This document shows, piece by piece, positions 28,001 through 47,576 of a DNA stretch of 64,000 nucleotides. Where the stretch lies: the NCBI GenBank assembly GCA_037305845.1, contig CP147778.1:224001-288000 (forward strand), read 5' to 3'. Positions within the stretch are counted from its first letter, which is position 1, and each line of letters begins with the position of its first letter. A model generated the notes under the pieces. That model had not been told where the DNA came from and searched no databases. It saw only the letters and a list, made by a program, of their open reading frames with translations. The DNA is from Candidatus Freyarchaeum deiterrae. Its GTDB lineage: Archaea; Asgardarchaeota; Jordiarchaeia; Jordiarchaeales; Jordiarchaeaceae. Position numbers and translations under genes: made by a program.

Positions 28001-28507
28001 TCACAAGTCTATCCCTATCACATAAATAGGTACTTGTATAGCGCTCTTAAAATGTGGAAGATATCTGACAACTTTTTCGAAAGTCAATGATCCTTCCCAG
28101 TTCTGGTTATAATCTTTTTTCATCCGATTCTGGAATTCTCTGGTTGTGACAATGTAAACGCTCACATCGATTTTATCTAGTCCAGAATAAGAGGCTACCT
28201 GAAACTTTAGAAGGTCTATTCCTATAAAGGAGGAGTGCCCGAACTCGACTTCTATGCCTACTCTTTCCTTCAAAAAGTCCATTTTTGCACCCGGATCTCC
28301 CGATTCGTCGAAAACAGATGGCTGACTTTCCCATCCCTTGGTAACGAATAGATTTTCAAGTACCTTGTTAAAATTAGGACGAGACAAAGAAGAAATTTCG
28401 ATATTCGGATTTGTGAGCACATTTTCAATCTCTTGTTTTATAGTTAATTTACTGTTTAAGACCTCTTCAGCGAATCGATAGGAAAATTTCCGTAATCTTA
28501 ATGTCAT
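28001..28507 (-). CDS. BglII/BstYI-like PD-(D/E)xK restriction endonuclease
   Basis: Motifs FVTKGW, MDFLKERVGIEVEFG, DLLKF, PIYVIGI. Confidence 0.82.
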   Translation of the reverse strand: MTLRLRKFSYRFAEEVLNSKLTIKQEIENVLTNPNIEISSLSRPNFNKVLENLFVTKGWESQPSVFDESGDPGAKMDFLKERVGIEVEFGHSSFIGIDLLKFQVASYSGLDKIDVSVYIVTTREFQNRMKKDYNQNWEGSLTFEKVVRYLPHFKSAIQVPIYVIGIDL

Positions 28508-28816
28508 TCATCGTGTCTCCCTATATTGTGAAAAGTAATTTTAAAGTTACATTTTTTCCTTTCAAAAGTATTATTTGTACCATTACGTTATTAATATTTA
28601 TCATTAATTTGGATTTCAGTTCTGCCTTGAGTGTAGACACATGTAAGATTTTTGATTTTATTCATCTTCTTCTTGACTGGATGTATGAAACCTTCTTTAG
28701 ATTATATTAATTTAATACATCTTCAGTATCGATATTGTTTGCTTATAGCTCATATAAAAGAATAGAATTAAAATCTAGCAAATAAGGCTAAATAGTTGAT
28801 TAAAAAGGGAGTGCAT

Positions 28817-29263
28817 ATGAAAGAATATATCAGAGACGGTAGAGCACCGATACCTGAATCCGAGATTGTCTCTAAAAGAATGAGCGCTGTCAGAGGCAAA
28901 CATACAAAACCCGAATTAGCTTTAAGAAAGGCTTTAAGGGAAATAGGCTTGGCAGGCTATAGGCTCCATTGGAAAAAAGCGCCAGGGCGACCAGATATAG
29001 CATATCCTAAGAGGAAGGTAGCGATATTCGTCCATGGTTGTTTCTGGCATCGATGTCCATACTGCAATCCTCCTTTGCCGAAAACACATACCGACTTTTG
29101 GATAAATAAATTTGAGAGGAACAAAGAAAGAGATATCGCGAAGGTACGCGCTCTTGAAGATGCTGGTTGGAAAGTATTCATATTCTGGGAATGCGAGATA
29201 AGGAAGGATGCCTTAGAGTGCGCTAAAAAGGTAAAGGATTTCATTGAAAGTGTACCACGATAA
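28817..29263 (+). CDS. vsr: Very-short-patch (G:T mismatch) repair endonuclease
   Basis: Motifs MSAVRGKHTKPE, PGRPDI, FVHGCFWH, FW..KF.RN.ERD, WECE. Confidence 0.95.
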   Translation: MKEYIRDGRAPIPESEIVSKRMSAVRGKHTKPELALRKALREIGLAGYRLHWKKAPGRPDIAYPKRKVAIFVHGCFWHRCPYCNPPLPKTHTDFWINKFERNKERDIAKVRALEDAGWKVFIFWECEIRKDALECAKKVKDFIESVPR

Positions 29264-29596: not shown

Positions 29597-32500
29597 ATGG
29601 AAAGTGGTGAATTTTTACGTTGTTCGCGTTGTGGAAAATTAACCGATGTCCGAAAAAGCGATGTAGAAGAGAGCGAATGGGATAGATACGTATGCTCTGA
29701 ATGCGAAGGTGAGGAATACGGTCAAGTGTTCGTTAATTGGATTCAAGATAGGATAAGCCCTTCTACGAGTGAAGATACTACAGGTAGGTTCGTTCTGAGA
29801 GAATTGGTTCAGAATGCTGATGATGTTGAAGCGGAGATAATGGTTCTACGATTCTGCAAAAAAGCGTTGTATGTTTACAACGATGGTTTCGGTTTCCGGT
29901 CTTCAGTAGACAACGGGCCAGGCGACTTTGAGAGAATATCCAGTGTATTGGCCAAACCAAAAGAGAAGGAGTTTTACACATCTGGGAACTTTGGTACCGG
30001 ATTCCAAACAGTATACCTCTTTACTAACTTCCCAGAAGTCCATTCCAATGGCAAATCGTTCAGATATGACCCTACAGGTCCCAAGAAAGAAGCATTAGCA
30101 GGCAAGGATAAAATCGGTTCACCGTATCATGATAGGAAGAACAAAGGAGCGGTGTTCAGGCTGCCTTGGCGAACAGAAAGGAACGCTGTGGTCAAAGACA
30201 AATTCTTCAAAGATAAGGAACTCTGGAAAAGGTGGGATGAGGACGACACTTATGAACTGTTCAAGGAATTGAGAGAATACTTACATGATTCCCTCCTCTG
30301 TTGCCAGCATTTGAAAAAAATCCGTATAATCTGGGAGGGAGATAACGTTAATGAGGGCTATCAAGCAGAGAGGGACTTCATATTAAAATACATCGATAAT
30401 GATGGAAAGATAGGAAAAGTTACAGAAGGTAAGGGAAGAGGCGGCCTTTTACCAGAAGACTGGAAGTATGAGGACAAGAAAGAGTTCAAGTATTTTATAG
30501 GTTCAACTTTCGTCTCGAACCGTTCTGTAAAGGAAGATAATATAACTATCATACATATAAAAAATGAAGATGATAAGACCTCTAAGATGGACATCAAGAC
30601 CCTAACAGGGAGTTCTTGTAGGTTATGTAAAGAAAGTTATGAAAGGTATTTTGAATCATTAAAAAAGGAAAACGCCATCAAGAAGAGCGATATCCATATT
30701 CTTATACCACTCTTCAAATGGGAAAAAAGGGTTGGAGAGAAACGGAGGAAAGCATGGACATATAGTGTTATACCATTACCAAAGGAGAGTGGGAATAACT
30801 TCACGTTCACAGCCCACCTTTTCCCTAAGCAGACAAGGGAATCTTTCGAAATCCATCAAGAAGAGGCTAAGAGAGAATGGCTGGAAAACGTGCTTCAGAG
30901 CGGAGCACGCCTTTTTCTAAGAACATACGAGCTCTATATAAAAATGGTCCATGGGATGGAAGAGCTCGATGATGAGACGAAGCAGGCAATGATTCTAGAC
31001 TACCTCCCAGCACAAAAATTATCAGATTGGGTAAAAGTCCCACTTGATGACACCGAAAAAAAAGCCAAGTTTTTGTTCGGTTGGGACAGGATACCTGGAA
31101 ACGATAACGATAGGCTCAGAGAAACTCTAATACATGATTTTGGTATTGATTGGGCGAAAAACGCAAAAATCGAAAAAACCGATCGTGGTAAGATTATAAG
31201 GGTTATCACTGTGAAGAACCAAATCTTACTGAAACTGAACGATGAAAACACAGAGGTATCGCTAATCTATGGGGCTAGAACCAGTAGGTTATCTGTGAAA
31301 ATGGAAAATAACGACATAAACATATATGAACCTCCCTTAGATGAGTACGTTTTCGCTGAAGTTTTCAGTAAAGAGATATTAGTTTCTGATGGCGAATGGC
31401 ATACACCTTTAGGTTCAGAAGAATTTATACCGTTCCCGAGGAATGAAAAGGAACGGTGGTTATTGGATAAGATGGACATAGTTACCTTTACCGACTCTTT
31501 CTTGAAGCATCCCAGGTTCAAAGAATTGCAAGAGTTCAGAAAACGATTGATGGATGAAATAGCAATGACAGATGGGAGATTCGAATCCTATTACAACAAA
31601 TATTTCTTTGATCAGATTAAGGATACGAACGGGAAGGTGACATATGGAAGCGCTACCATAGATAAGGAGTTGATAGAGAACCTTATTGAGCATTGCTTAG
31701 TGAGCCCTTGTGCTCGAATAATGGACTCGTTGAAAATCATACCCAATAAGCAAGGAACACTTTGTAGCCCAAAGGAACTTAGAAAAGAGCCTGAAGGTGA
31801 CTTTAGAGAATTAAGGAGTATTATACCGTCTTATCTCTATCCTCACGAGGACTTCGAGTCGAAGGTCAAGGTATACATCAACGAAATAAATGACCCTATA
31901 GAGCTGCTAGAAGGCATTAAAGAGAACAAGGTGATTTTAGAGAATGATACGAAATTGACCAGGATGTGTTATGAATGGTTGGAGAAATCGGATAAGAAAC
32001 TGCCAAAGGACATCAAGGATTACCCTCTCGTTCTTGATGATAACGGTCATATGGTACCAATCAATGATGTGTTTTGGACACCTACTCACCATCATGACTT
32101 AATCAAGGATTTTCTGATTTCCCAGAAAGGCGAATCACATTTGGTCTCCAAGTCAATCCTTACGGATTTCGAGGACTTCATCTGCAAAAGTCTTAAAGTC
32201 CAAATCTTGGATTACCATGAAATAATCACAAAATATCGAAATGCCATTGAAGGGACAGAGCAGCAAAAGATAGAGTTACAGGCTATAATGGCAGAGGGGA
32301 TTATGCTTGGACTTGCGAATAGGTCATGGCAGGCGGACGAGGTGAATGAATTGCATTTTCTGCCGGTGAACGGGGTATTGGAAATCCCTCGTAATGCTTG
32401 TGTTGGCTCTGTTAATGACAAAGAACTGGATAGTTTTTTGGGATCCATCGACGGTTATGTACAAGAGATGATTGAAAAAAGCGGTTATAAGAAGGCTATT

Positions 32501-35500
32501 ATAGAATTGGGATGCGGGGATTTGAACAAAGATTTTATCGGATGCATCATTGGTAGGATAGATAGGTACGCAGAGGAGAATAAGGATGAAGAAGGTATAT
32601 GCCGCTTGGATGATAAACATCACAGGTTGGTTTCAGATTGTTTGTATAGACTGACCAAAATATCTCAGTTTAGGGGATATGAAGGAATCCTAAAGAAGAG
32701 AATATTGCCTGTAGATTATCGTAACTCATTGATTCTTTCTACTCCTCCAAGATGGGACACGGTAAAAGGAGAATGGCGACTTGAAAAATATGATAGGGAT
32801 TGGCCTTGGGTTAGACCCGAACTAAACTTTTTGAATGAAGGGGCATCTTCGGTTTGGAAATCAATCCAATTCGTTCATCTCCATGAGGATTTCCAAGACG
32901 CTGAGAAATTGATAATAAGGGAGTTCGGGATAGAACGCCTTAATATTAGAGCATTGATTATGCACTTCCTATTACCAAGGGACGAGCCTAGGACTTCCCT
33001 CTTCTTTGATGATTCATTAATCGCATTCATTGGACCTTCCCATAAGATGAATAATACCGATAAAATCAAAAAAACTTTTCTTGGTTATTTGAATGAATAT
33101 TATAAGGAAAGTAAACATGCGGGTGAGAAACTGTCCATTGAAGATAAACCGTGTCTCTACGATGACAAACCAGTGCCAGTCTGGAGAACGCCAAAAGAAT
33201 TCGCCTTCAAAATAAATGAGGATTTGGAGGTATTGGGATACAATAACCTTAGCGAGGACTTCTCTGAAGAGGGAGGATGGGATAGAAAGACGCTCACAAA
33301 TATGGGGGTTGTGGACAGACTTGAATTCGAGATTATAGGGAAAGCAATCCGTAGATACTCTGCCGAAGACAGGAACACTGATACGGATAGAGTGATACTG
33401 AGAACTCTTATACTCTGCTTACGTGAAAGAATAGGCACTTACGATGATTGGAAGAAACTATCTGATGTAAAATGGGTGCCTACTATAGATGGCAAGTGGA
33501 ACAAGCCAAGCTCCGCACTTCCTCTTACAGAAAAAATTGGAAAGTTGATTGGTGATTATAAGCTCAATTCTCTTATCGACTTTGCGTCTTTAAAAGGTGA
33601 AGAGGAGGATGAATTATCGAAGTTCACTGAAGAGGACTTCAAAAATATTGGTTTCAGGAACACCCCTACTTTTGATGAATTGATAGAAGTATGGACGCAT
33701 TACCAGAATGAAAAGAAAAGCCCACCACCAGAACTCTTTGACGAACTCGAAAATAGGTTCCGGGGGAATAAGGAAAAGTTTCTACATACGAAATATACGG
33801 GTGAAATATTATATTTCGTAGATGATGAATGGAAAGACCCAAAATTTGTGGTAATGGGCAAACGGGAAGATTTCCCAGAACCGATAAGAGAAAGATTCGC
33901 ATTCACGAGTAAACATGAGAACCTGTTAAAATGGATGCGTGGAGAGCTAGATACAGAAGAAAGACCCAGGATTAAAGTGAAGGACGCACTTGCGATAGTG
34001 GACGACCTTTCTGATGAGGAGATGAAATCTGTCTGGGATTTTATCATAGCCCGACGGACCGAAATAGATGAAGGATTGAAAAATGAGTTCAAGGAAAAGA
34101 AGATTTTCCTTTATGATGACCAACGTTATGCTCCCATCAGGATATTGATTCCATCGAGTGACGTAACTGGTCTAAAGTTCAAAGGGAAGCTCGGGAACTG
34201 GCTGTCAATCGGTTCTGAGACTAGTCGGAAGGCAATGGACACGCTGTCCAGCCTAGGAGCACAAGAATTAGATAAAATCATCCATGAACAAATCAACCTG
34301 CAGGATTTAATAAAATGTATGATAACCGAAAAACCCAGACCGGGGATGACTCTTTGGTCCGACTACCTCCTGGTAATATCGAAAATGATTGATGGAGGGG
34401 TTACAATCCCCACCGATTTTGAGGCAGTTCCTTTTGAACAATCTTCTGAAATAGTCTTTAAAGCGCCGAAGGAAATCCTGTTAAGGGATAACTCAGGAGT
34501 ATGGGAGCTGTTCCAAAATGAGAACAGGTTGAATATCTTAGATCCTACCTTGTTCTTGGATGAGAAGATATCTGCGGATAAGTTGGAAAGTTGGTTAAGA
34601 AGATGTGGTGCAAGAAACTTCAAAAAGGTCTTGGGGGGCATCCAAGAACCACATATAAGCGAAGCGGAGCAAGAAACTAATCTTACAGATGACTTCAAAA
34701 ATGCGTTGAAAAGACTTGAAGAGAGTGTCAGCTCAGAGTTTGAGGTTGATGATCAAAATCTCATCAATCAAAAGATAAGTGGATTACGAGAAGCAATCAT
34801 ATACTCATGCAAGAAGATAGTGCGATTATATGAAATAGACATGACCCAAATCGATGGTGGTCCCTCTATATCCAAGGAGATATCCCAATCCTGCTATTTA
34901 GCGAAGAATAATACAAGATGGATTATCTTTATGGGAAAAGATTCCGAGAACTATATGTTAGACCTAGAAAAGATGGTTAGAGAGGATTTCAACCCTGGCT
35001 TTGGAGATATATACCGAAAGAGATTTTGGGAGAGTACAGTAAAATCCGCTTTCTTTGACCAAGCAACAGATATAACTCGTGAGCGGGTATTACCTAATTT
35101 AGCTGAAAACATAAGTAAGCTAGATAAGTGGTGGAGTATCTATCTCTCAGACCCAAATAAATCGTCTTTCCCTACGCTAGATGGTGATTTTTGGTGGCCT
35201 GCCCTTGGTCTTGATGACGAAGGTAATGAAGAAAAAAGAGTGGCTATATTGAAAGGTGAACTGCTGAAGAATAGAAAGGTGATGTTCAACTTATTTTCAA
35301 TGGCTACTTTATTGAGCGCAAACGTTCAGAGAAATCAAATAAAGAGCTTCTTGGATATCCTAAAGGGCAAAGGGCTGTCATTCAGTGAGATGTACGATAT
35401 GGAGGAAGAAGAGGTCATTAGAAAGATGATTGATGATATGTTTGGGGATATCGACAGTAAAGGTCTCACAGAGAACATCTACCCTGAACTCAGACGTCGG

Positions 35501-35986
35501 ATATTTGATATTCTGACCTTGAGAAGGGCGATGAAGGATGAAATCATAGGTGGGAACATACTAAGCATGATAAAATCTTATGAAGATGATGGCATTTCCC
35601 CTGAGCTTTTCTTTACCCGTGGCCGAGGGTATGGAGCAAAACCATTCATGAAAGGGTTCAAAGGAATGTTCACAGGGCAAATATATTTCTTCGTAAGAGA
35701 GATGGCCAGGCTCGGGCTCGCGGACAAATGGAAAGAAATAGCTTTCCATACCCCGTCTCAGGTGAGGAAATTGATTGATAACTTGGGCGGAAGAGTACCC
35801 TCAGAGTCCAAGGATGGTTGGAGAGAAGGTTTGGCCCAATCCATGATGCGCTCTATAAATGATTACCCCAATCTGAATGGATGGTACGATATCCCATTTT
35901 TCATATATTATGACGAGTTCTGTAGAGAATGCATGCGAGGTAATCCTCCGCATGAATGCGAGATGAATTGTTATCAACGTGAGTGA
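29597..35986 (+). CDS. Giant sacsin-N-like GHKL ATPase protein with N-terminal Zn ribbon and C-terminal Cys cluster
   Basis: GHKL motifs LRELVQNADD, VYNDG..F, GNFGTGF, GAVFRLP; CSRC...CSEC at the N-terminus; CRECMRGNPPHECEMNC at the C-terminus; overlaps the next gene by 8 nt. Confidence 0.85.
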   Translation: MESGEFLRCSRCGKLTDVRKSDVEESEWDRYVCSECEGEEYGQVFVNWIQDRISPSTSEDTTGRFVLRELVQNADDVEAEIMVLRFCKKALYVYNDGFGFRSSVDNGPGDFERISSVLAKPKEKEFYTSGNFGTGFQTVYLFTNFPEVHSNGKSFRYDPTGPKKEALAGKDKIGSPYHDRKNKGAVFRLPWRTERNAVVKDKFFKDKELWKRWDEDDTYELFKELREYLHDSLLCCQHLKKIRIIWEGDNVNEGYQAERDFILKYIDNDGKIGKVTEGKGRGGLLPEDWKYEDKKEFKYFIGSTFVSNRSVKEDNITIIHIKNEDDKTSKMDIKTLTGSSCRLCKESYERYFESLKKENAIKKSDIHILIPLFKWEKRVGEKRRKAWTYSVIPLPKESGNNFTFTAHLFPKQTRESFEIHQEEAKREWLENVLQSGARLFLRTYELYIKMVHGMEELDDETKQAMILDYLPAQKLSDWVKVPLDDTEKKAKFLFGWDRIPGNDNDRLRETLIHDFGIDWAKNAKIEKTDRGKIIRVITVKNQILLKLNDENTEVSLIYGARTSRLSVKMENNDINIYEPPLDEYVFAEVFSKEILVSDGEWHTPLGSEEFIPFPRNEKERWLLDKMDIVTFTDSFLKHPRFKELQEFRKRLMDEIAMTDGRFESYYNKYFFDQIKDTNGKVTYGSATIDKELIENLIEHCLVSPCARIMDSLKIIPNKQGTLCSPKELRKEPEGDFRELRSIIPSYLYPHEDFESKVKVYINEINDPIELLEGIKENKVILENDTKLTRMCYEWLEKSDKKLPKDIKDYPLVLDDNGHMVPINDVFWTPTHHHDLIKDFLISQKGESHLVSKSILTDFEDFICKSLKVQILDYHEIITKYRNAIEGTEQQKIELQAIMAEGIMLGLANRSWQADEVNELHFLPVNGVLEIPRNACVGSVNDKELDSFLGSIDGYVQEMIEKSGYKKAIIELGCGDLNKDFIGCIIGRIDRYAEENKDEEGICRLDDKHHRLVSDCLYRLTKISQFRGYEGILKKRILPVDYRNSLILSTPPRWDTVKGEWRLEKYDRDWPWVRPELNFLNEGASSVWKSIQFVHLHEDFQDAEKLIIREFGIERLNIRALIMHFLLPRDEPRTSLFFDDSLIAFIGPSHKMNNTDKIKKTFLGYLNEYYKESKHAGEKLSIEDKPCLYDDKPVPVWRTPKEFAFKINEDLEVLGYNNLSEDFSEEGGWDRKTLTNMGVVDRLEFEIIGKAIRRYSAEDRNTDTDRVILRTLILCLRERIGTYDDWKKLSDVKWVPTIDGKWNKPSSALPLTEKIGKLIGDYKLNSLIDFASLKGEEEDELSKFTEEDFKNIGFRNTPTFDELIEVWTHYQNEKKSPPPELFDELENRFRGNKEKFLHTKYTGEILYFVDDEWKDPKFVVMGKREDFPEPIRERFAFTSKHENLLKWMRGELDTEERPRIKVKDALAIVDDLSDEEMKSVWDFIIARRTEIDEGLKNEFKEKKIFLYDDQRYAPIRILIPSSDVTGLKFKGKLGNWLSIGSETSRKAMDTLSSLGAQELDKIIHEQINLQDLIKCMITEKPRPGMTLWSDYLLVISKMIDGGVTIPTDFEAVPFEQSSEIVFKAPKEILLRDNSGVWELFQNENRLNILDPTLFLDEKISADKLESWLRRCGARNFKKVLGGIQEPHISEAEQETNLTDDFKNALKRLEESVSSEFEVDDQNLINQKISGLREAIIYSCKKIVRLYEIDMTQIDGGPSISKEISQSCYLAKNNTRWIIFMGKDSENYMLDLEKMVREDFNPGFGDIYRKRFWESTVKSAFFDQATDITRERVLPNLAENISKLDKWWSIYLSDPNKSSFPTLDGDFWWPALGLDDEGNEEKRVAILKGELLKNRKVMFNLFSMATLLSANVQRNQIKSFLDILKGKGLSFSEMYDMEEEEVIRKMIDDMFGDIDSKGLTENIYPELRRRIFDILTLRRAMKDEIIGGNILSMIKSYEDDGISPELFFTRGRGYGAKPFMKGFKGMFTGQIYFFVREMARLGLADKWKEIAFHTPSQVRKLIDNLGGRVPSESKDGWREGLAQSMMRSINDYPNLNGWYDIPFFIYYDEFCRECMRGNPPHECEMNCYQRE

Positions 35987-38654
35987 TTCGAGATTGGTAA
36001 AGAGGGTAAAAGACAGACTGGGTAGGTATCATAATATCGGTAAAGTTCTGGCGGAAGAGTTATTTGGTGGTTTCCTCCAGTATGTGGTGGACTTTGGGGA
36101 GGAAGGGATACAAAGGCTGAAAGTCGATGAACTGGATATAATACCCTTGGAAGAAAGATTGTACGATGGTAACTATAACTTGAAAGAATTCATCCTCAGG
36201 ATAAAAGCTTCACTGATGTTCAATGATGATATAAAGACTGGGTGTGTATCCAGAATGAAACTTGACCTGATACCACACCAGATAATAATGGCAGATAAGG
36301 TCATGAACACAAAATCCAAAGGGTTCCTTATCGCAGATGATGTGGGACTTGGCAAAACGATAGAAGCGGGACTAGTAATCCGTTCCATGATAGCTCATGG
36401 AAGGGCGGACAGGATTCTACTTCTCTGTCCTGCAAATCTAGCGCCTCAGTGGAGGGAACAGTTATCAGAACGCTTTGATGAGTGGTTCGATATATTAAGG
36501 ACAGAGATGAACATCACCGATCCAAGGAAATGGGACTATAGTCCTAGGATGATAGCAAGCATCCAGACACTCAGGTTACCACAACACAGAGATATACTGT
36601 TGGAGAGCGTACTGGACTGGGATCTCGTAATAGTAGATGAGGCGCACCACTTAACAGCAAGGGAGTATGCCTCGAAAATCACCTCAAAAATCGATAAGAA
36701 CAAGAGCTATCAGTTGCTCGACAGACTTAGAGAGAGGAGCAAGTTCTTTCTCTTCCTGACGGCTACCCCACATCAAGGTGAGGACGATAGGTTCGCCATG
36801 TTGTTAAGGCTACTTGACCCGGAACATATCAAGAACACTAAGGATCTAGATGGTCTCGGTCCCAAGATAAACGAGTTGATGGGGAGGAACATAAAGTCTG
36901 AGGTCACGGATTTTGAGGGTAACCAACTGTTCAAAGGGCATGATATGTTCAGACATGAGGTCATGCCTACTTTGGAGTATTCATCTTTCTTGGAAGAGTT
37001 GAAACAGTACGTGAATGATGGATTTATATCGTTGGATGAGCAAAAAGGTAACCGTTTAAGTGCGGAGGGCTTCGTCCTCACATCATTCTTGAAGTTAGCC
37101 GCTTCAAGTCCGGAGGCCATAAGGAGGACATTGACCAATAGATATGACAACTTAAAGAAAGTAAGCGTTGTGTCAGCCGTCAGTTCTGAGCATGACGATA
37201 GGTTTGAAGGGGAGTATGAGGAGAAATCTGCGTCAGAAGCGAAAGAACTTTTCGAGGGTGAAAGAAAAAGGATTGAGAACCTTATTAACAAATTGAAGAA
37301 TATCAGAGATACAAAATTAGCGGAACTGGACGAGATACTTGAGCAAGAGGGTATACTTCATGACAAAGACAAAAGGATTCTGATATTCACAGAATACCGT
37401 GGTACACAGGAAATGATTAAGAACCACTTAGAAGCAAATTTTGAGAAAGGGTCGGTACTACTGATGAATGGGGACATGGACGCTAACCAGAAGAGAAACG
37501 TGGTGAAGAAGTTCGATACCGAGAAAAGGTTCCTTGTATCGACAGAGGCTGGTGGAGAGGGCATCGATCTTCAAAACAATTGCCATATCATGGTCAATTA
37601 CGACATACCATGGAACCCTATGAGGTTGCACCAGAGGACGGGTAGGCTAGACAGATACGGCCAAAAAGAAAAGGTTCATGTGCACTACATTGTCGTTAAA
37701 GGAACGATAGATGAAAAGATACAGCTTTTCCTAAAGGAGAAAATCGAGCGAATAGAGAGAAGATTGGGCGATTTGAAAGGCGACAAAGCAGAAAGACTAC
37801 GTGAAGATGTACTTGGCCAACTAACATTGTCCAGAGATGACATATCAAAGCTATATCTTTCAAATATCAAAGAATCTGAGGAAAGGTTAGAAAAGAACAT
37901 AGAAAATGCTATCGAATCGCTTAAAAGACAGGAGAGCATATTCAAAGAGATAAAAAGGTTCGACCTGAAAGAATTCAGAAAAATAAAATCTGAATATGAA
38001 CTTGGAAATCTTGAAGAACTCATTAGACAATATCTAGCATCTATGCACAAACGGATGGTCGAAGAGGGGGATGGCGTCGTTCACTTCGATATACCTGACG
38101 AAATAAGTGATATGAAGGTCTTCCACGGCAGAAGACTCAATATGTCTAAAATCAGAGGGACGTTCGATAGAGTTAAATCTGGAAAGCTTGGCATAGATTT
38201 GCTTGGCACAGGGAACGAGTACATAGATGCCATGTTGGACAGGATGATTAAAAGGGCTGACAGCGGTGATGTGTTAGCCTCAAGGATATATGTGGATGAA
38301 GGGCATATGCTCGATGGGAAAAGAGGGCTACTAGCATCCTACATAGTGACATCCACTCCCACTGTAGGGGGGAAACAAAGTTTTGATGGTGTCGAGTTCA
38401 TTTTTTATAATCCCGATGAGGAAAGATTGTATGATTCACAAGAGGACTTGAGGGAAATCCTAAAAACCATATGTGATGAGCGAAGGCACCATATGCTGAA
38501 TCCGCATGATGTTCCAGATGAAAATAAGATTGTTAGCATCGCCAAGGAAATCGAGAACTTCATAAACGGGAAAATCCGTGATGGTCGTATAGGTTCTGTG
38601 AACATGAACTCAATAGCTTGGTTGGAATTCTATGGGCAGAAGCCGCTCGCTTGA
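35979..38654 (+). CDS. drmD: SNF2/RapA-like helicase, DrmD-like
   Basis: Motifs PHQ, LIADDVGLGKTIEAG, DEAHH, LTATPHQG, STEAGGEGIDLQ, PWNPMRLHQRTGRLDRYGQ; located in the drmABC operon. Confidence 0.85.
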   Translation: MSDSRLVKRVKDRLGRYHNIGKVLAEELFGGFLQYVVDFGEEGIQRLKVDELDIIPLEERLYDGNYNLKEFILRIKASLMFNDDIKTGCVSRMKLDLIPHQIIMADKVMNTKSKGFLIADDVGLGKTIEAGLVIRSMIAHGRADRILLLCPANLAPQWREQLSERFDEWFDILRTEMNITDPRKWDYSPRMIASIQTLRLPQHRDILLESVLDWDLVIVDEAHHLTAREYASKITSKIDKNKSYQLLDRLRERSKFFLFLTATPHQGEDDRFAMLLRLLDPEHIKNTKDLDGLGPKINELMGRNIKSEVTDFEGNQLFKGHDMFRHEVMPTLEYSSFLEELKQYVNDGFISLDEQKGNRLSAEGFVLTSFLKLAASSPEAIRRTLTNRYDNLKKVSVVSAVSSEHDDRFEGEYEEKSASEAKELFEGERKRIENLINKLKNIRDTKLAELDEILEQEGILHDKDKRILIFTEYRGTQEMIKNHLEANFEKGSVLLMNGDMDANQKRNVVKKFDTEKRFLVSTEAGGEGIDLQNNCHIMVNYDIPWNPMRLHQRTGRLDRYGQKEKVHVHYIVVKGTIDEKIQLFLKEKIERIERRLGDLKGDKAERLREDVLGQLTLSRDDISKLYLSNIKESEERLEKNIENAIESLKRQESIFKEIKRFDLKEFRKIKSEYELGNLEELIRQYLASMHKRMVEEGDGVVHFDIPDEISDMKVFHGRRLNMSKIRGTFDRVKSGKLGIDLLGTGNEYIDAMLDRMIKRADSGDVLASRIYVDEGHMLDGKRGLLASYIVTSTPTVGGKQSFDGVEFIFYNPDEERLYDSQEDLREILKTICDERRHHMLNPHDVPDENKIVSIAKEIENFINGKIRDGRIGSVNMNSIAWLEFYGQKPLA

Positions 38655-38767
38655 ATTGAAAGGTTTATAGATATGGACACCCAGAATAAAGAGATTAATA
38701 ATATATGAAAGGAAATAAAAATCGTTACGGTAATTTGTCCAAATAGAAAAAAGAGGATGAACTTGAG

Positions 38768-40612
38768 ATGGGATTGAAGGTGGCAGATTTTTTCTGTGGT
38801 GCGGGTGGCTTTTCCGAAGGTTTCAGACAGATGGGATTTGAGATAGTTTATGGGACTGACATATGGCCACATGCAGTAGAGACTTTTCGAAAGAACTTCC
38901 CTGAGGCTGATGTACCAGACCCTATCGACATATTAGACATAGAGATAAAAGACTTACCTGATGTAGATGTGATAATTGGCGGTCCCCCCTGTACTTTTTT
39001 CTCTCCATCAAATAACGGTGGGAATGGCAATACCGACAAAGGTATGAGACTGGTAAAAGGGTTTCTAAAGATAATAGATGAAATGAACCCTAAATGGTGG
39101 ATAATGGAGAATGTTCCAAGACTATCACTGACTTTACCTAAAAGCATCTCTCTCTATGATTCAGCGATTGGGAAGAAAGACAAGTGTTTCGAAATACCAA
39201 ATAGAAATGTATTGAACGCTGCAGATTATGGGGTACCTCAAGGAAGAAAAAGACTTTTCGTAGGGAACTATCCATCGCCTAAGCCGTCCCACTCAGACAA
39301 AGGAGAAGGAGGAACGGAGCAATGGAGACTGATGCGGGATGTTATAGAAGGCCTGCCTTATCCACTGGACGAAGAGAACAGTAGTAATGTTAACGACCCC
39401 CTCTACACAGGAATCACATTGGATTGTGATGAATTCACTGAACATAGGTACGATACCTTCCTTACAAAGATAGAGGTAGAAGAAGCGAAGAGATTGAAAA
39501 CCAGACACAGGTATTATGGAAAGATAAACTTCCCGGACGATATCGACAGACCAGCAAGGACCGTTATGGCTTCGATTAGCAGAACAAGCAGAGAGATGAT
39601 GGTTATTAAAGAGAATAGAGGTAGTAAGGAAGGATATAGGATTCCGACCTTACGGGAATGTGCCTCCCTTCAATCTTTCCCTATTACCTACCAGTTTTGG
39701 GCTCAGAACATCTCTCCGAAATACAAATTGGTAGGCAACGCTGTCCCTCCCATGTTATCGAGGGCGATAGCTAGAGCGATACTGATTGTTGAAGGACGTA
39801 CCCCTCCAGATGAACCAATTATTCGAAAGAAAGTGACCGAGATACCTGAAGTTCTACCTGTTGATGCAATCTCCAGAGGAAGGCTAAGAACCAATTATCG
39901 CCTCAACAGACATTATTGCGACTTCATAGATCATCATGCCAACCATTCAAGAACTGGTTGCCGTATAGATATTGATAACGAAGGTAAGCGGCCAAAAGAA
40001 CACCCTATGTATAGTGGAAAACATGGTTGGAGGAGAAAAGTGATACGGCATATCAAGGAATGGAGGTGCGTCCTATATACTGGGTACGCTAAGAATGCCG
40101 AGAACATGGTAGTTTCTTTGAAAGATGCTTTGAGCTTATTGAATGACAGCAACCCACTAGAGTTCAATAAAAAGATGACTTGCATCATTGACGATATTAT
40201 TAATAAAAAGATACATGAGATACCAGACGCAACAACGTGCCAGGGTATATTGTCGGGTAAGGTCAAGGGCATAAAGGAGAGCCCCCTTTGGATTAGAAAA
40301 ATGTTGACGAAAATCGTAAATGATAATTTTCCTGAAAAAGAAAAAACAACGAACAAAATCAAAGATTATGGACGTATCCATGTCAGATCGGAAATAATGT
40401 TAACTCAGAGAGATGCAGCACAGTTGATAATAGCAGCTCTTACATGTGCCGTGATGAATGAGAGCGATGTATGGTTATTAGAGAACTGGGGTAAGCACTT
40501 TTGGTTGAAGGAATGGCCAGTAATTGAGAAACTCCCTTACAAAGAATCTAAATGGGTAAAAAAAATCGAGGGAAAAATAAAGATGCATAAATGGTCAGGC
40601 GATACGAATTGA
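38768..40612 (+). CDS. DNA (cytosine-5) methyltransferase, DrmMII-like role, with ~270-aa C-terminal extension
   Basis: Motif I DFFCGAGG, IV GGPPC, VI ENV, VIII PQGRKR, IX RECASLQSFP, X VGNAVPP. Confidence 0.95.
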   Translation: MGLKVADFFCGAGGFSEGFRQMGFEIVYGTDIWPHAVETFRKNFPEADVPDPIDILDIEIKDLPDVDVIIGGPPCTFFSPSNNGGNGNTDKGMRLVKGFLKIIDEMNPKWWIMENVPRLSLTLPKSISLYDSAIGKKDKCFEIPNRNVLNAADYGVPQGRKRLFVGNYPSPKPSHSDKGEGGTEQWRLMRDVIEGLPYPLDEENSSNVNDPLYTGITLDCDEFTEHRYDTFLTKIEVEEAKRLKTRHRYYGKINFPDDIDRPARTVMASISRTSREMMVIKENRGSKEGYRIPTLRECASLQSFPITYQFWAQNISPKYKLVGNAVPPMLSRAIARAILIVEGRTPPDEPIIRKKVTEIPEVLPVDAISRGRLRTNYRLNRHYCDFIDHHANHSRTGCRIDIDNEGKRPKEHPMYSGKHGWRRKVIRHIKEWRCVLYTGYAKNAENMVVSLKDALSLLNDSNPLEFNKKMTCIIDDIINKKIHEIPDATTCQGILSGKVKGIKESPLWIRKMLTKIVNDNFPEKEKTTNKIKDYGRIHVRSEIMLTQRDAAQLIIAALTCAVMNESDVWLLENWGKHFWLKEWPVIEKLPYKESKWVKKIEGKIKMHKWSGDTN

Positions 40613-43600
40613 CGAAAGCGGAAGTAAGAAAGCAACTAGTTAAGAACTTGGAAAGAGATTTGCTTGGCCCAAAGAAAGGGCCGGATGAAGAATTCATGGA
40701 ACTACCCACACAACGATATGTAATTGGTATTCTTTTCCCTTCAAGTACACCGATAGGTCCAGAACAGGACATAAACAATCCTCCTGAAGGGGAGGACGAT
40801 GAAGAATATAGCCCGATGTATAGAACTCCCCTTGAAAACGAGCTCCGTCCCTCGTCCATGGGAATGTCGTTCATCGTTGATAAGAATATTACATCACTGC
40901 CCGTCGAGATAAGATGGGCGACATATATACAAAAAGAAGAATATGGTTCTTTCAGGCGGTGTGAACACACAGTCTCTATGGAACTTGATGTATCTGCCGA
41001 TGACCTCAAGGGGGATGAGCCTCTTTACAGAAAAGATATGGCTGATGCTAAAGAATTCAGAGTGTTCTGGAGGACATACAGAGGAGAGAAGGAAGATCGT
41101 CCTGTTAGCGTCTTTCTCTGGAACAAGGAAACTACTTCATCGAACAAAGCGGAGCTGTCCCAGCGATGTATGTTCTCTCCTTCAATAAGGATAGAGTTCA
41201 AAGACAGGTTCATCATCGCAAGAAAGAGGATGACGATTGCCAGTGAGGAGGAGGATTTGAAATCCCTAAATCTCCTTTATCATGATAGACATGAGTTCGG
41301 CGTTGGTCATGGTTGTTCAATAATGTGGATGGATGTACAGGGGAACCGCTGTGGGCTCATTGAGACGACATTCATGCCAACGTATCATTGGCAACCCTTG
41401 TCGTTTAGGGAGGAAGAATATCCTTTTTATATGAAGAATATGTCAGAAAAAAAAAGGAAAGAACAAATCCAGGAAGAACTTGAACTGTTAAAGTCTTATG
41501 AGGAGTGGATATCTGGAACGTTCTCTGAAGTTGAGAAGAATCAATTAGAGCCTATGTTCCACGAGACCTTTGACAGACATAAGAATGAATGCATGACATC
41601 CCTCGTCAGGATTAAAAAGGGCATCGAACTGTTAGAAGATGACCAAGTTTTCAACGCATTCTGCTTTATGAACGAAGCGATGTTCCTTCAAAGGGCATAT
41701 TACGACGCTGCTGTTGAATATAGAAAAGAGGGCAAAAAGTTCAAAGATCCTTCTCTCACAGATTCGAAGGTAATCGCGAAGCATAGATGGAGACCGTTCC
41801 AAATCGCTTTCATTCTACAGGCCATCCCAGGGATTGTGAATCCCAACGATGATGATCGAAAGATTGTAGACCTTCTCTGGATTCCTACAGGAGGAGGTAA
41901 GACAGAGGCGTATCTAGGTCTTGCCGCCTTTACTATGGCATACAGGAGGCTAAAAAGCAAGGCGCTAGAAGACTATGCAGGTGTTAGCGTCATGATGAGA
42001 TACACGCTACGCCTCTTAACTATACAACAATTCCAAAGAGCCGGAGCTTTGATGTGCGCTTGCGAAGCCATCAGGGACAAGAACAAAGCTAAATGGGGTG
42101 AAATTCCGTTCCTTGTTGGACTTTTCGTCGGTCAAAGCACCACTCCGAACATCATAGGTAAAAAGAATGATTATGTCAAGTACAATGAAGACGGATGGAA
42201 AAACAAAAATTGTGAAGATACTGCATATTATGCATTGGAATATTGGAAAAAGGAACATCAGAAACCTACGGGTAGTAATCCTTTCCAATTGTTATACTGT
42301 CCTTGGTGCGGTGAGGAGCTTACTGAAAAGAGCTATACGATTGACGATGAAAAACAAAATGTAATCACACATTGCGTTCGAGACGGGTGCCTTTTCAAAC
42401 TTCTGGAAATCCCTGCGATAACAGTAGACGAAGATGTATACAATCGCCTCCCCTCTATGGTCATAGGCACAGTTGACAAATTCGCCATGCTCCCGTTCAG
42501 CCCCAAAATAGGTAAAATGTTCGGGCACGTAGACAGGTACTGCCCTACACATGGCTTTCTCTGCCGAACCGAGAATCATTCAGATTCGCATAAGAGCGGT
42601 GTGCAAGTGCGTTCAATAAGGAATCCGCTTAACCCGCCTAATCTGATTATACAGGATGAACTGCACCTTATCAATGGGCCGTTGGGTAGCATGGTCGGCA
42701 TTTATGAAAGTACAGTAGATAGGCTTTGTTCCAGAAATATTGGAACTGTTATCGTAAAGCCTAAGGTCATCGCGTCGACTGCAACAATACGAAGAGCAAG
42801 GGATCAGGTCTGGAACATCTTCGCAAGGGATGTCAAGCGTTTCCCTGCTCCTGGGACCGAGTTCTCAGATTCTTTCTTCGTTAAGGAAGTCCAAGATGAT
42901 AACAATGCCAAGCAATTCATAGGTGTTTTCCCCTCGGGGATAGGTCAGAAAACCGTAATGAAGAGAACGTTATCCAGCCTTCTATTATCTGCGTTGGAAT
43001 TTAATAAGAAAGGTTCACCAGTGGAGGACTGGGACGAATATTGGACCTTGGTTTCCTATTTCAATAGTATCCGCGAACTTGGCAGTGCTAAGACAACAAT
43101 CGAGGACGATGTTAACAGTGCTGTTAAAGAAAGGAGAAAAATATTACCAATCGATGAACTTACAAGCAGAATCAACTCTAAGGATTTACCATCCATTTTG
43201 GCAAAACTTAACATCAGAGGGGACACTGACAAAGCCGTCAACATCTTGGCATGTTCCAACATGTTCTCGGTCGGTGTCGACGTCCAGCGACTTGGGTTGA
43301 TGGTAATGAACAACCAGCCAAAAGCGACATCAGAATACATCCAATCTACAGGGAGGGTAGGAAGGAACAAGTCAGGGTTGGTCATAGTGTTATATAATTG
43401 GGTGAGACCAAGGGATCAATCACATTATGAAAGGTTCTATGATTACCATAACAGGATACAATCATATGTGGAAGCCATGACCGTGACCCCGTTCTCAGAA
43501 GGCGCTAGTGAACGCGCCCTGCATGCCCAATATGTGAGCATGATAAGGATATTGAGCGATGCGCAATTGTCACGCCAGTCAGAAGCAGGTAATTTCAATT

Positions 43601-43929
43601 CTGTAATAAGGTGCTCCTCAGCCAGCCGTGCGTATGAAGAGTGGTTAGAGGAGCGAATGAAGACTGTCACAGGGGAAAGTAGTGGAGACCTGAAAGAAAG
43701 GCTGACGAAATTTCTAGATAAATGGATTGATTGGGTCGATTTAGTAGGGAAAGAACTATGTTATGAAAAAGGCCAGTACGGTCAGTGCAGAAACTACCTA
43801 TTGAGGAGAATAGACGATGTCCGTCAACCGGAAGACGGAGGCCTTAAAAAATTGACCCCTACCTCAATGAGGAACGTTGAGCAACAAGTGCCGTTACATA
43901 GGGTGAAAATACCAAGGTCGGGAAGGTGA
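40591..43929 (+). CDS. drmA: DISARM helicase DrmA
   Basis: Motifs WRPFQIAF, PTGGGKTEAYLG, RYTLRLLTIQQFQRA, CPWCG, IQDELHL, SEYIQSTGRVGR. Confidence 0.93.
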   Translation: MVRRYELTKAEVRKQLVKNLERDLLGPKKGPDEEFMELPTQRYVIGILFPSSTPIGPEQDINNPPEGEDDEEYSPMYRTPLENELRPSSMGMSFIVDKNITSLPVEIRWATYIQKEEYGSFRRCEHTVSMELDVSADDLKGDEPLYRKDMADAKEFRVFWRTYRGEKEDRPVSVFLWNKETTSSNKAELSQRCMFSPSIRIEFKDRFIIARKRMTIASEEEDLKSLNLLYHDRHEFGVGHGCSIMWMDVQGNRCGLIETTFMPTYHWQPLSFREEEYPFYMKNMSEKKRKEQIQEELELLKSYEEWISGTFSEVEKNQLEPMFHETFDRHKNECMTSLVRIKKGIELLEDDQVFNAFCFMNEAMFLQRAYYDAAVEYRKEGKKFKDPSLTDSKVIAKHRWRPFQIAFILQAIPGIVNPNDDDRKIVDLLWIPTGGGKTEAYLGLAAFTMAYRRLKSKALEDYAGVSVMMRYTLRLLTIQQFQRAGALMCACEAIRDKNKAKWGEIPFLVGLFVGQSTTPNIIGKKNDYVKYNEDGWKNKNCEDTAYYALEYWKKEHQKPTGSNPFQLLYCPWCGEELTEKSYTIDDEKQNVITHCVRDGCLFKLLEIPAITVDEDVYNRLPSMVIGTVDKFAMLPFSPKIGKMFGHVDRYCPTHGFLCRTENHSDSHKSGVQVRSIRNPLNPPNLIIQDELHLINGPLGSMVGIYESTVDRLCSRNIGTVIVKPKVIASTATIRRARDQVWNIFARDVKRFPAPGTEFSDSFFVKEVQDDNNAKQFIGVFPSGIGQKTVMKRTLSSLLLSALEFNKKGSPVEDWDEYWTLVSYFNSIRELGSAKTTIEDDVNSAVKERRKILPIDELTSRINSKDLPSILAKLNIRGDTDKAVNILACSNMFSVGVDVQRLGLMVMNNQPKATSEYIQSTGRVGRNKSGLVIVLYNWVRPRDQSHYERFYDYHNRIQSYVEAMTVTPFSEGASERALHAQYVSMIRILSDAQLSRQSEAGNFNSVIRCSSASRAYEEWLEERMKTVTGESSGDLKERLTKFLDKWIDWVDLVGKELCYEKGQYGQCRNYLLRRIDDVRQPEDGGLKKLTPTSMRNVEQQVPLHRVKIPRSGR

Positions 43930-45680
43930 TTTTTATTAACGAGATGAGACCAAGCAAATTGATAATGACCTTTGGACCTGGATCTATAGTCGATTTTCCA
44001 GATAGGGAATCTTACATCGTGATGGGACCAGATTATTGGAAGTCACATGAAACGATACAAGAACCTAGACTTGCTAAGAAATTGGATTGCGACCATTTTG
44101 GTTCGCCCCAAAAGAGATGGGACGACAAATCCCATTTTTTTGTGGGCATCGCCGTCCGTGATTTCCCTCATATGAGGGTATGTCCATCTTGCGGTAAGCT
44201 TTCATATGAGTTCCGTTGCAAGGATTGTAAGGGATCTGAAGATGAAAAAGGCCCTAAGACGATGCCTCCGAGACTCGTCGCCGCTTGTAAGGGTGGTCAT
44301 ATCCAAGATTTTCCATGGAAAGCGTGGTGCGGTTGCACTTGCAACCGTAATGATGCACGGTTGTTCCTAATCGGAGAGAGTATAGAGGCGGAAGGTTCGG
44401 ATTTGAAAGTCGTATGTAAAAATTGTAGGAGCGAGAGGAATTTGATGCTGGCACTAGGGCAGTTGAAATACAGTTGCAATGGGGAACGGCCGTGGTTAGG
44501 CGATGAAGAGACCTGTTCGGAAAAACTATATGGGCTGATGAGAGGGGCGAGCAATGTTTACTTCCCAGTGATTGAGAGCTCTTTAAGCATACCACCTTAC
44601 TCAACAGAGATACATAAGGATGTAGAAAAGCATATGGACGCTGCTAGGGCAAACTGGGTTAACAATAACATTAAAGGGTACATCGAAAATAATGATGAAC
44701 TGAAAAAGTACATCGAAGATGGGAAATACACCGAAAATCAACTTATAAGGGCTTTCGGCGAGAAATTTGGAGGGCCTTCCTCCATCGATATAAAAGGGGA
44801 GGAGTGGGACCGGCTCGTTCACGATGTAAAATACGGTCCAAACGATGATTTCCAGACAAAAAGTATTGACATAACCGGCTCCAATCTCGATAAATGGTTC
44901 GCCCGCATCGTACTTGTTACAAAACTGCGCGAGGTCGTCGCAGTGACTGGTTTCAATAGAGTGGAACCAAACAATCCTGACACGAAACAAAAATTGAGGA
45001 TGGAGATGGAGAACTGGTCGGATTTCCTTAATAATCATCCGGATATAAGTCCTAGTCTGGACATCGAAATATCTAGAAATTGGCTACCAGGTGTAGAACT
45101 GTTCGGTGAAGGTATCTTCTTCAAGTTTAAAGAGTCCATGGTCAATAGATGGAATGGTGACTCAGCTAATATTAAACGTTGCAAACGGATAATCTCGCAG
45201 CCGAAACAACCCTTCAAAAAGGAAGGAGTAGACCTCACCGACGAGCGGACAATCCTTGTGCATACCTTCGCTCACCAGTTCATTCGTCAAATATCACTAG
45301 AATGCGGTTATTCTATGGCGTCTCTAAAGGAAAGACTTTATGTTAGGAGAAGTGATGAAAGGGACATGTGCGGTGTCCTTATTTACACAGCCTCGTCAGA
45401 TAGTGAAGGAACCCTAGGTGGACTAGTAGCACAAGCAAAGGACAGCAGAACCCTTCTTGGTCATATCTCAAGTATAATCGATTCCGTAAGGTTTTGTTCT
45501 CAAGATCCATTATGCGGAACACATGAACCGACCACTACGAAAAACCCATGGGGAGCCTCATGCCATTCATGTTCCCAATTGCCTGAGACCTCCTGCGAGG
45601 GACTACAGAACAAACTATTAGACCGTTTCACATTGATAAGCAATGATGAAGTGACGGGATATTTCGATGACAGTCTATAA
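43926..45680 (+). CDS. drmB: DISARM DUF1998 protein DrmB
   Basis: Motifs RPSKLIMTFGPGS, C..GHIQDFPW, RGASNVYF, HTFAH...ECGYS..SLKERLY, CSQDPLC...CHSC...ETSCE; GTGA overlap with drmA. Confidence 0.93.
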   Translation: MIFINEMRPSKLIMTFGPGSIVDFPDRESYIVMGPDYWKSHETIQEPRLAKKLDCDHFGSPQKRWDDKSHFFVGIAVRDFPHMRVCPSCGKLSYEFRCKDCKGSEDEKGPKTMPPRLVAACKGGHIQDFPWKAWCGCTCNRNDARLFLIGESIEAEGSDLKVVCKNCRSERNLMLALGQLKYSCNGERPWLGDEETCSEKLYGLMRGASNVYFPVIESSLSIPPYSTEIHKDVEKHMDAARANWVNNNIKGYIENNDELKKYIEDGKYTENQLIRAFGEKFGGPSSIDIKGEEWDRLVHDVKYGPNDDFQTKSIDITGSNLDKWFARIVLVTKLREVVAVTGFNRVEPNNPDTKQKLRMEMENWSDFLNNHPDISPSLDIEISRNWLPGVELFGEGIFFKFKESMVNRWNGDSANIKRCKRIISQPKQPFKKEGVDLTDERTILVHTFAHQFIRQISLECGYSMASLKERLYVRRSDERDMCGVLIYTASSDSEGTLGGLVAQAKDSRTLLGHISSIIDSVRFCSQDPLCGTHEPTTTKNPWGASCHSCSQLPETSCEGLQNKLLDRFTLISNDEVTGYFDDSL

Positions 45681-46458
45681 AAGAACATCATTGGAAAGGT
45701 TAGCTGATTTGGCAACCAAGATAAAGATAACTCTATCCCCTGAGAAAACCACGATGTTCTTGAAGATGTTGGAAGAAAGAGGCTTCACACATCCGACATC
45801 ATTCGATATAGATAGACTAGGTCTCCCGCCAAACAAAGCTGATTTGTTAAAAAGGTACATCGGAAGCATTGAGAAAAAGGAAGAATTAATTGCAATCTCA
45901 TTATCCCTTTTAGATGACACAAAATCAGAGTCCTCATCCCCAATGGAAGTATGTTGGACAGGTCCTTCAGAAAATCGGCATATACGCATGACATGGCCTG
46001 CTCTTTCGGAGATGCTGTTATCTGCTGAGAAAAGCATACTTATAATCGGTTATGCAATCAACGCCAACATGAGAAGCTTAATGGACTATCTGGAAGAGAA
46101 ATCTAAATCCGGTGTGAGGCTGGTTTTTATGATGGATAGATTGAAAGAGAAAGAGGATTTCCTTTGCTGGGCCAAGGGGCTACCTCAACCACCAGAACTC
46201 TATGATAGACCCGAAGACCCAGAAGACCCTATGTCCGCGCTTCACGTCAAATGCGTGGTTGTCGACGAGAAAGTAGCTATGTTCGGATCAGCGAACTTAA
46301 CATATCATGGCATGAAGGGAAATATAGAGTTAGGTCTAGTATTACACGATGAGAAAATCGTCAAAAACATAGTAGATTTATTAGAGGGGTTAAAAAAGGA
46401 ACTGGTCAGATTCAACCTGTCCGAATATAGAGCGAACAGCAATGTTGGAAATAGTTGA
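45667..46458 (+). CDS. drmC: DISARM phospholipase-D nuclease DrmC
   Basis: WTGP, a single HKD motif LHVKCVVVD, GSANLT..G...NIELG; overlaps drmB. Confidence 0.92.
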   Translation: MTVYKRTSLERLADLATKIKITLSPEKTTMFLKMLEERGFTHPTSFDIDRLGLPPNKADLLKRYIGSIEKKEELIAISLSLLDDTKSESSSPMEVCWTGPSENRHIRMTWPALSEMLLSAEKSILIIGYAINANMRSLMDYLEEKSKSGVRLVFMMDRLKEKEDFLCWAKGLPQPPELYDRPEDPEDPMSALHVKCVVVDEKVAMFGSANLTYHGMKGNIELGLVLHDEKIVKNIVDLLEGLKKELVRFNLSEYRANSNVGNS

Positions 46459-46946: not shown

Positions 46947-47576
46947 ATGAAAAACGAGGAGAGAGCAGAAGAAAAAAGAAAAGAAATAGTGGATATTTTA
47001 AATGATGCCCTTAAAAACCATATTACTCAATATATGAAAGATAATTCAAATTTGCGTATTGAAGATATATCCTCAAGAATAACAAATAACTTTGTGAGAA
47101 TAACTTCTCCTGAGTCAGATGATAAAATTTATTTGATTACTGAGAGAATGATGGGTAGAGGAGGAGGCAGAAGCGTAAAACCAGGAAATATTTTTTTAAA
47201 CTGGAAAAAGCTCATAGTAGTTCTTTCTGAAAGCTTTCTGACAATTTTTGGAGCCATTCAAATGCCACTCTTAATTCCATTTGCATGTCTTGTCGTTTGG
47301 GATAAACTTTATTCTTTATCAAATATTCCGATTTCAGAAAAACACGCTGCTGTTATTTATGTTATGTGGAAAAATCGGGATGAAAAACAATGCATCAGAG
47401 AAGACTTGATTTTAAATTATATAAACACAGAACTATCTAAATTTAATCTCCCTACGATGAGCCAAGAAGAACTAAACCAGATATTGAAAGATTTAGAAAA
47501 AATGAAAAGCATTGAAAAAAGTAAAAGTGATAGAAATAAATGGTGGTTACGAGAATGGGTTAGGGTTGAATACTAG
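46947..47576 (+). CDS. AT-rich hypothetical protein with a hydrophobic segment and possible C-terminal winged helix
   Basis: 209-aa ORF with GAGGT RBS; hydrophobic LIVVLSESFLTIFGAIQMPLLIPFACLVVW; ELNQILKDLEKMKSIEK...WWLRE tail. Confidence 0.75.
   Translation: MKNEERAEEKRKEIVDILNDALKNHITQYMKDNSNLRIEDISSRITNNFVRITSPESDDKIYLITERMMGRGGGRSVKPGNIFLNWKKLIVVLSESFLTIFGAIQMPLLIPFACLVVWDKLYSLSNIPISEKHAAVIYVMWKNRDEKQCIREDLILNYINTELSKFNLPTMSQEELNQILKDLEKMKSIEKSKSDRNKWWLREWVRVEY

Follow-up and report, generated by a model that had tools for sequence, protein, structure and literature searches.

A sacsin-like GHKL ATPase and its SNF2 partner in a DISARM operon of Candidatus Freyarchaeum deiterrae: a putative recruited module

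The 64,000-nucleotide (nt) stretch of the Candidatus Freyarchaeum deiterrae genome analyzed here (contig CP147778.1, positions 224,001 to 288,000; hereinafter the window, the numbering of which is used throughout) contains a DISARM defense operon that is led by a gene for a giant sacsin-like ATPase. On balance, we favor the interpretation that a class 2-type DISARM core, which consists of a 5-methylcytosine (5mC) methylase, DrmA, DrmB and DrmC and is accompanied by Vsr, has stably recruited a mobile two-gene module, namely, a GHKL ATPase with a probably non-catalytic HhH-GPD domain and a dedicated SNF2-family translocase. Assigning the core to the class 2 type takes into account that class 2 systems need only drmABC and a 5mC methylase, and that class 1 systems with an added 5mC methylase have been described before. 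The GHKL-HhH/SNF2 module appears to be undescribed; the core is an ordinary, published DISARM.

The operon comprises six open reading frames (ORFs) on the plus strand, with four overlaps (35979-35986, 40591-40612, 43926-43929 and 45667-45680) and a single 113-nt gap, precisely as given in a preliminary description of this DNA; the overlapping frames represent translational coupling within the operon. The first gene (29597-35986) encodes the giant, a sacsin/Tiamat-like protein of 2129 amino acids (aa), in agreement with the 2.1k-aa GHKL/sacsin-like leader of that description. The ATG at 29597 is its likeliest start and agrees with the starts of the homologs; an alternative TTG start is located at 29582. 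This gene is followed by those for a translocase with SNF2 and Helicase_C domains (35979-38654), a 614-aa C5-cytosine methyltransferase (38768-40612), a short form of the DrmA helicase (40591-43929; NF038325 score 1003, cut-off 950), DrmB of the DUF1998/MZB type (43926-45680; NF038324 score 429, cut-off 240) and a DrmC-like phospholipase D (PLD) family nuclease (45667-46458). The last protein scores 105 with NF038319, below the cut-off of 133, but DrmC is its top PADLOC match, and it contains the HxKxxxxD motif at residue 193. Adjacent drmA, drmB and drmC, the DISARM core, are accordingly recovered by profile searches of the kind that the preliminary description had proposed, with DrmC just below its NCBIfam cut-off. 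The catalytic motifs are intact in the ATPase domain of the giant (ExxxN and GxG), the SNF2 protein, the methylase, DrmA and DrmC. As also stated before, neither drmMI nor drmE is recognizable: there is no adenine methylase in the operon or in related loci, the NF038316 profile has no match in the whole genome, and the giant does not match the DrmE models. The lack of drmE is unexceptional because class 2 DISARM is defined by drmABC and a 5mC methylase, with drmE being occasional or optional (Ofir et al., 2018, via 10.1101/2021.12.28.474362).

The giant has 12 near homologs with 31-53% identity, and a search for the same gene order in other genomes, likewise proposed earlier, was productive. 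The order giant-SNF2-[methylase]-drmA is retained in all nine near-clade loci (L002/3, L004, L005, L006, L007, L008, the P0007 contig, L009 and the more distant L022), and drmB and drmC are present wherever the contig extends to them. Because all nine near relatives keep giant-SNF2-drmA, chance juxtaposition of two systems, the outcome that the preliminary description had named as fatal to its proposal, can be rejected. Three of these loci have the methylase gene between the SNF2 gene and drmA, and two have it ahead of vsr; in the other four, none is seen. The window also contains, directly before the operon and missed by the preliminary description, a gene for a Vsr T:G mismatch endonuclease (28796-29263, plus strand; TIGR00632 score 124, cut-off 98), which is the usual first gene of the unit and lies directly upstream of the giant gene in L002, L004, L005 and L009. 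Thus, vsr belongs to the conserved unit, and vsr and the methylase gene are its frequent but variable members. Alignments of DrmA and the giant yielded no related loci among the GTDB genomes, and a metagenome search found a single short contig.

A profile built from the C-terminal domain of the giant retrieves distant giants of 1900-2450 aa, several of which contain a second sacsin-type ATPase. Those examined again precede an SNF2 gene, with no drmABC in view; they are found next to Type III restriction-modification (RM), Mrr and WYL genes, next to a gene for an SBD-HNH nuclease, or, with the gene in two parts, on a Sphingomonas plasmid. In the latter case (plasmid pC33 of Sphingomonas changnyeongensis, a cultured source; L042:2739-12622), the giant is divided into proteins of 1607 and 799 aa that are followed by the SNF2 protein. 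The GHKL ATPase and the SNF2 protein therefore recur as a pair with and without drmABC and behave as a module, as had been suggested. Conversely, a member of the same DrmA clade from a Nitrososphaerota metagenome-assembled genome (MAG; L025) combines vsr, a long methylase, a 691-aa gene and drmABC, and has neither the giant nor the SNF2 gene. In this locus (L025:2937-9930), we also observe a canonical HhH-GPD gene and a Sau3AI-like nuclease gene; the 691-aa gene is located directly before drmABC, and its product is not detectably DrmE and matches no known family.

The same distribution lends some support to an alternative under which two independent systems travel together, the giant and the SNF2 protein being a complete two-gene defense and drmABC with the methylase an ordinary class 2 system that shares the operon for co-expression or synergy, with no direct coupling. 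Both the pairs that lack drmABC and the L025 locus that lacks the pair fit this scheme. However, in the near clade, the pair is never found apart from drmA (9/9), the order is fixed and the reading frames overlap; furthermore, the SNF2 gene directly abuts drmA in at least five loci, and the methylase gene is the one that moves. We therefore consider independent systems unlikely, albeit a serious competitor to recruitment of the module by the core.

The giant itself consists of an N-terminal Cys finger, the GHKL ATPase domain, a repeat body and a C-terminal domain with the HhH-GPD fold. The ATPase domain (residues ~35-260; 29696-30376) is of the sacsin type, with a PF25794 match above the cut-off (E 3e-13) and similarity to TmtA over the N-terminus (E 2e-24), although the TmtA matches to the GHKL domain are weak in the profile search. 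The catalytic residues E69 and N73 and the GxG motif are intact, and these motifs are nearly invariant among the homologs. The body (31334-34876) is modeled by AlphaFold2 (AF2) as repeated alpha/beta units (pLDDT 81, pTM 0.48). It has no PDB match and no Pfam match to a DUF3684-type repeat; its nearest shapes in the Atlas are the SACS, DUF3684 and NOV_C clusters, a weak likeness (TM 0.2-0.3) because of which we describe the giant as Tiamat-like. An in-frame insert of ~88 aa (31067-31330), which corresponds to a gap in the alignment of ten other homologs, is shared by this giant and its closest relative alone (P0004/L007, 48% identical) and occurs as a single copy in the genome; we take it to resemble a module common in proteins of the anaerobic methanotrophic archaea (ANME)/Methanosarcinales type. 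In L009, the giant is split into proteins of 1314 and 753 aa near residue 1390, which suggests either a domain boundary or a frameshift.

The last 300 residues of the giant are conserved more strongly than the body and, in the AF2 model (35093-35983; pLDDT 76), adopt the two-lobed helical fold of HhH-GPD DNA glycosylases followed by a C-terminal cluster of four cysteines; this domain, too, was missed in the preliminary description. When the model was compared with known structures (VIA), Ogg TM1821 came first, with Z 10.1 and an rmsd of 4.0 across 200 residues, and EndoIII and MutY followed with 9.6 each. The first 22 entries of the ranking consist entirely of HhH-GPD enzymes and proteins related to them in fold, and nothing unrelated scores above Z 5.3; the matches in the Atlas include AGOG and DUF2400 clusters. 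The fold is detected only by the structural aligner and the Atlas: PDB sequence searches and Pfam returned nothing for this domain, Foldseek gave E > 0.001, and hhalign found no significant alignment with three EndoIII-like proteins (probability 0.6). The similarity to HhH-GPD glycosylases (Ogg TM1821, EndoIII, MutY and AGOG) and to the queuine salvage enzyme DUF2419 thus consists in the predicted fold (Z 7-10, ~200 aligned residues) and the C-terminal Cys cluster, whereas the giant shows only 8-13% identity, does not conserve the canonical Lys and Asp and is fused to an 1800-aa ATPase clamp. In one short, non-significant hhalign stretch, Pro2053 is aligned with the catalytic Asp of EndoIII; given the hhalign probability, the Asp register depends on this single stretch. 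Across the homologs, a non-acidic residue, Pro or another, takes this position, and none of the lysines is invariant. Because of Pro2053 and the missing Lys, the domain is likely to be a pseudo-glycosylase, predicted to be non-catalytic.

The opposite possibility is that the domain is an active, atypical glycosylase, so that the giant would be the effector that excises particular bases of invading DNA, for example hypermodified or unmethylated ones, with the resulting abasic sites or gaps loading DrmAB. The domain occupies the place of the nuclease effector of Tiamat (10.64898/2026.09.30.754977), seven residues (W1846, D1971, R2034, E2035, R2038, D2098 and P2100) do not vary among 17 very divergent sequences, and fold relatives with rewired chemistry exist, such as the queuine salvage enzyme (DUF2419, Z 8.7). 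The non-acidic Asp position, the lack of an invariant Lys and the loss of the Cys cluster in several distant family members nevertheless make such activity improbable. A complex prediction for the SNF2 core and the HhH domain gave a score of 0.01, which weighs neither way.

The SNF2 protein appears to be the partner of the giant and not a DrmD ortholog. It scores 342 with the DrmD model, compared to the cut-off of 610 and to 1363 for a true DrmD. In the tree, it groups with the partner SNF2 proteins of distant giants and other non-DrmD helicases (support 100/99). The approximately unbiased (AU) test rejects its union with DrmD (p=0.003), in a tree with only two DrmD references and some long branches. 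DrmD orthology is thus rejected by both score and tree. The same genome encodes a second, unrelated SNF2 protein of 1174 aa (1609497-1611869; L035) with a DrmD score of 355, as high as that of the operon protein.

The DrmA proteins of the near loci form their own clade apart from the class 1 references (support of 100 in the SH-like approximate likelihood ratio test, SH-aLRT). The tree analysis proposed in the preliminary description thus sets this clade apart from class 1, with no verified class 2 reference included. The DrmA of the operon has no class 1 N-terminal extension, and its core aligns along the full length with the class 1 DrmA of Serratia (E 8e-154); NF038325 (DrmAS) does not separate the classes, given that class 1 proteins also pass. 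These results bear on the view taken in the preliminary description, that the locus is a hybrid of a class 1 SNF2 helicase (drmD) and a class 2 methylase (drmMII), with the giant as an extra. The top PADLOC match of the SNF2 protein is indeed the DrmD model, the order SNF2-methylase-drmABC mimics class 1, and the SNF2 gene has been named drmD in print (PMC11529989). The low DrmD score, matched by that of the unrelated SNF2 protein, the AU test, and the position of DrmA outside the class 1 branch already largely refute such a recombinant, which is very improbable.

Compared with class 1 DISARM (Serratia sp. SCBI; PDB 7S9V), the operon shares an SNF2 gene and a methylase gene before drmABC and differs in the absence of DrmMI, the identity of the SNF2 protein and the shorter DrmA. 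Moreover, class 1 systems that combine drmD and a 5mC methylase have been described before, in Serratia (10.1101/2021.12.28.474362), and a Microvirga class 1 locus likewise pairs the two. With class 2 DISARM, the operon shares drmA, drmB, drmC, the C5-cytosine methylase and the lack of an adenine methylase; it differs in having no DrmE and in a methylase with a long C-terminal extension and probably a different target, and adds vsr, the giant and the SNF2 protein.

The methylase is the only C5-methylase (PF00145; E 2e-49) of the genome, with intact motifs, and it accompanies drmABC as in class 2. It fits generic type II (MTase_II) models better than DrmMII (209 and 120 bits, respectively). Archaeal homologs, among them one encoded on a haloarchaeal plasmid, share the conserved C-terminal extension of ~270 aa (39800-40612), which matches no family. 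Two other loci have full-length homologs beside Sau3AI/MutH-family nucleases: L025, where the nuclease matches Sau3AI with E 7e-24, and a Haladaptatus plasmid. The Sau3AI/MutH family cuts GATC, and the BstYI-like family, a member of which neighbors the operon (28001-28507), has sites with a GATC core. In the cassette, GATC is found 20 times versus 90 expected; the observed/expected (O/E) ratio of 0.22 falls below the values of all 202 genome tiles of the same size (median 0.57), and CCWGG shows no such depletion. Together with the lack of any second C5 enzyme and the possible nanopore call given next, the neighborhoods and the composition suggest that the target is probably GATC rather than CCWGG. 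Several N4 and N6 methylases of the genome could write CCWGG, which was listed among the motifs called N4-methylcytosine (m4C) in Freyarchaeia, together with a possible GATm5C from nanopore data (PMC11529989).

It has to be considered whether the module and Vsr serve only to find and process damage done by the methylase and the helicases, be it mismatches from 5mC deamination or protein-DNA blocks; vsr precedes the giant gene in five loci and a canonical HhH-GPD gene lies beside vsr and the methylase gene in L025, but that glycosylase has no significant similarity to the C-terminal domain of the giant, distant pairs have no C5-methylase in view and Tiamat-like proteins are defense proteins, so a pure maintenance role is scarcely credible.

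Under the recruitment scenario, the methylase would label the host genome with 5mC, with GATC as the likeliest site, the enzyme class being evident and the motif tentative. Vsr, whose family has an established function in T:G mismatch repair, would repair the mismatches that arise from 5mC. DrmAB would then load on unmethylated DNA with single-stranded 5' overhangs, translocate, and either block the DNA or pass it to DrmC; the trigger of DrmAB in Serratia is 5'-overhang DNA that lacks methylation, and DrmC is not essential there (PMC9142583). The giant might be an ATP-cycled clamp with a glycosylase-fold domain that binds duplex DNA and probes modified, mismatched or unmethylated bases without excising them, and the SNF2 protein might move or open the DNA, supplying or licensing the DrmAB substrate. 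The two proteins would fill the accessory slot that is held by DrmD or DrmE elsewhere.

Several observations weigh against this scenario. No methylase is seen in the fetched DNA of four near loci, three of which begin at contig ends. The module and drmABC each occur without the other, the former in the loci of distant giants and the latter in L025, a sister locus by its DrmA, so that neither needs the other in principle. The depletion of GATC is mixed in the relatives (O/E 0.35-0.94), and the 5mC signal in the nanopore data could be m4C read wrongly. True DrmD was represented in the trees by two sequences only, and class 2 DrmA by none that is verified. Finally, the glycosylase likeness is that of a predicted model, with a Z of about 10 for a helical fold and the Foldseek values given above, and the conserved acidic residues D1971, E2035 and D2098 could form an atypical active site.

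A Freyarchaeia 'DISARM-II' consisting of drmA, drmB, drmC, 'drmMII' and 'drmD' has been published (PMC11529989; 10.1101/2024.03.22.586370) and almost certainly is the same locus as the present operon. Because that paper lists 'DISARM-II' plus drmD, the hybrid reading is already in print. The paper also lists drmE, which is not found here, and ties the methylase to CCWGG; its text contains neither a mention of the giant nor the word 'sacsin'. The present analysis corrects this annotation in that the SNF2 protein is apparently not DrmD, there is no drmE and the motif is probably GATC. With respect to the Tiamat-like family, many C-terminal effector swaps have been described, the neighborhood III-C contains a cytosine methylase, GajB and DrmA/B, and defense by Tiamat requires ATP turnover (10.64898/2026.09.30.754977). 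The giant shares with these proteins the sacsin-type GHKL ATPase and the exchange of the C-terminal effector and, to the extent that the weak shape matches indicate, the repeat body. However, type III-C proteins end in a helicase and are accompanied by GajB, and in the place of the NOV_C/DUF3883 PD-(D/E)xK nuclease that characterizes Tiamat in the strict sense, the giant has an all-helical HhH-GPD fold. An HhH or glycosylase C-terminus is not mentioned in the preprint and would be a new type of C-terminal effector for the Tiamat/sacsin family. In the literature searched, we found neither the architecture of the giant, nor its pairing with this SNF2 clade, nor the conserved subtype. The claim of an undescribed archaeal DISARM subtype thus stands in part: the subtype is real and conserved in all nine near loci, whereas a locus with drmABC, drmMII and 'drmD' was already published and the 2026 preprint places a different Tiamat-like gene beside drmAB.

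More speculatively, the giant and the SNF2 protein might constitute an undescribed mobile defense module of archaea and bacteria, in which a Tiamat-like clamp with a repurposed glycosylase fold reads (or excises) modified bases and which plugs into DISARM, Type III RM/Mrr or SBD-HNH systems; we advance this wider proposal only tentatively. If it is true, the combination would define a third class of DISARM, with the ability to recognize base-modified viruses; class 2 DISARM is known to stop phages with modified DNA (PMC9142583). A natural variant in which an ATP-driven clamp with a putative base-probing fold takes the accessory position would offer a direct test of whether DISARM accessory subunits are sensors, and the split version of the pair on the Sphingomonas plasmid allows work without the archaeon because the host is cultured.

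The cassette was probably acquired laterally. Five congeners (87-99% complete) possess the flanking PIN and HEAT genes, but searches detected neither DrmA nor the DGQHR gene (see below) nor a C5-methylase in them, a pattern that fits lateral gain; the congener contigs are too short to reveal an empty integration site. The nearest DrmA relative clusters with, among others, a protein from a Euryarchaeota MAG.

Two further genes upstream of vsr were considered as core parts and rejected given their absence from related loci. The BglII/BstYI-family restriction endonuclease (28001-28507, minus strand; PF09195 E 7e-47, BstYI E 3.5e-8), an accessory gene, has no tblastn match in these loci, and the DGQHR/DpdB-like gene (26117-27298; TIGR03187 above the cut-off) is found neither there nor in the congeners and has no dnd or dpd partners nearby. 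ORFs at the island edges (27430-27894, 154 aa, and 46947-47576, 209 aa) have no Pfam match and no copy in related loci. Among other DISARM loci, two other Asgard genomes (L033 and L034) encode long-form DrmA proteins of 1360-1420 aa, on a branch separate from the clade of the operon, with a short C5-methylase nearby. Finally, on a Sphingomonas plasmid, an inserted class 1 DISARM (L032:1251-19796; drmD, methylase, drmA and drmB) separates cas3 from casA within a type I-E CRISPR operon.

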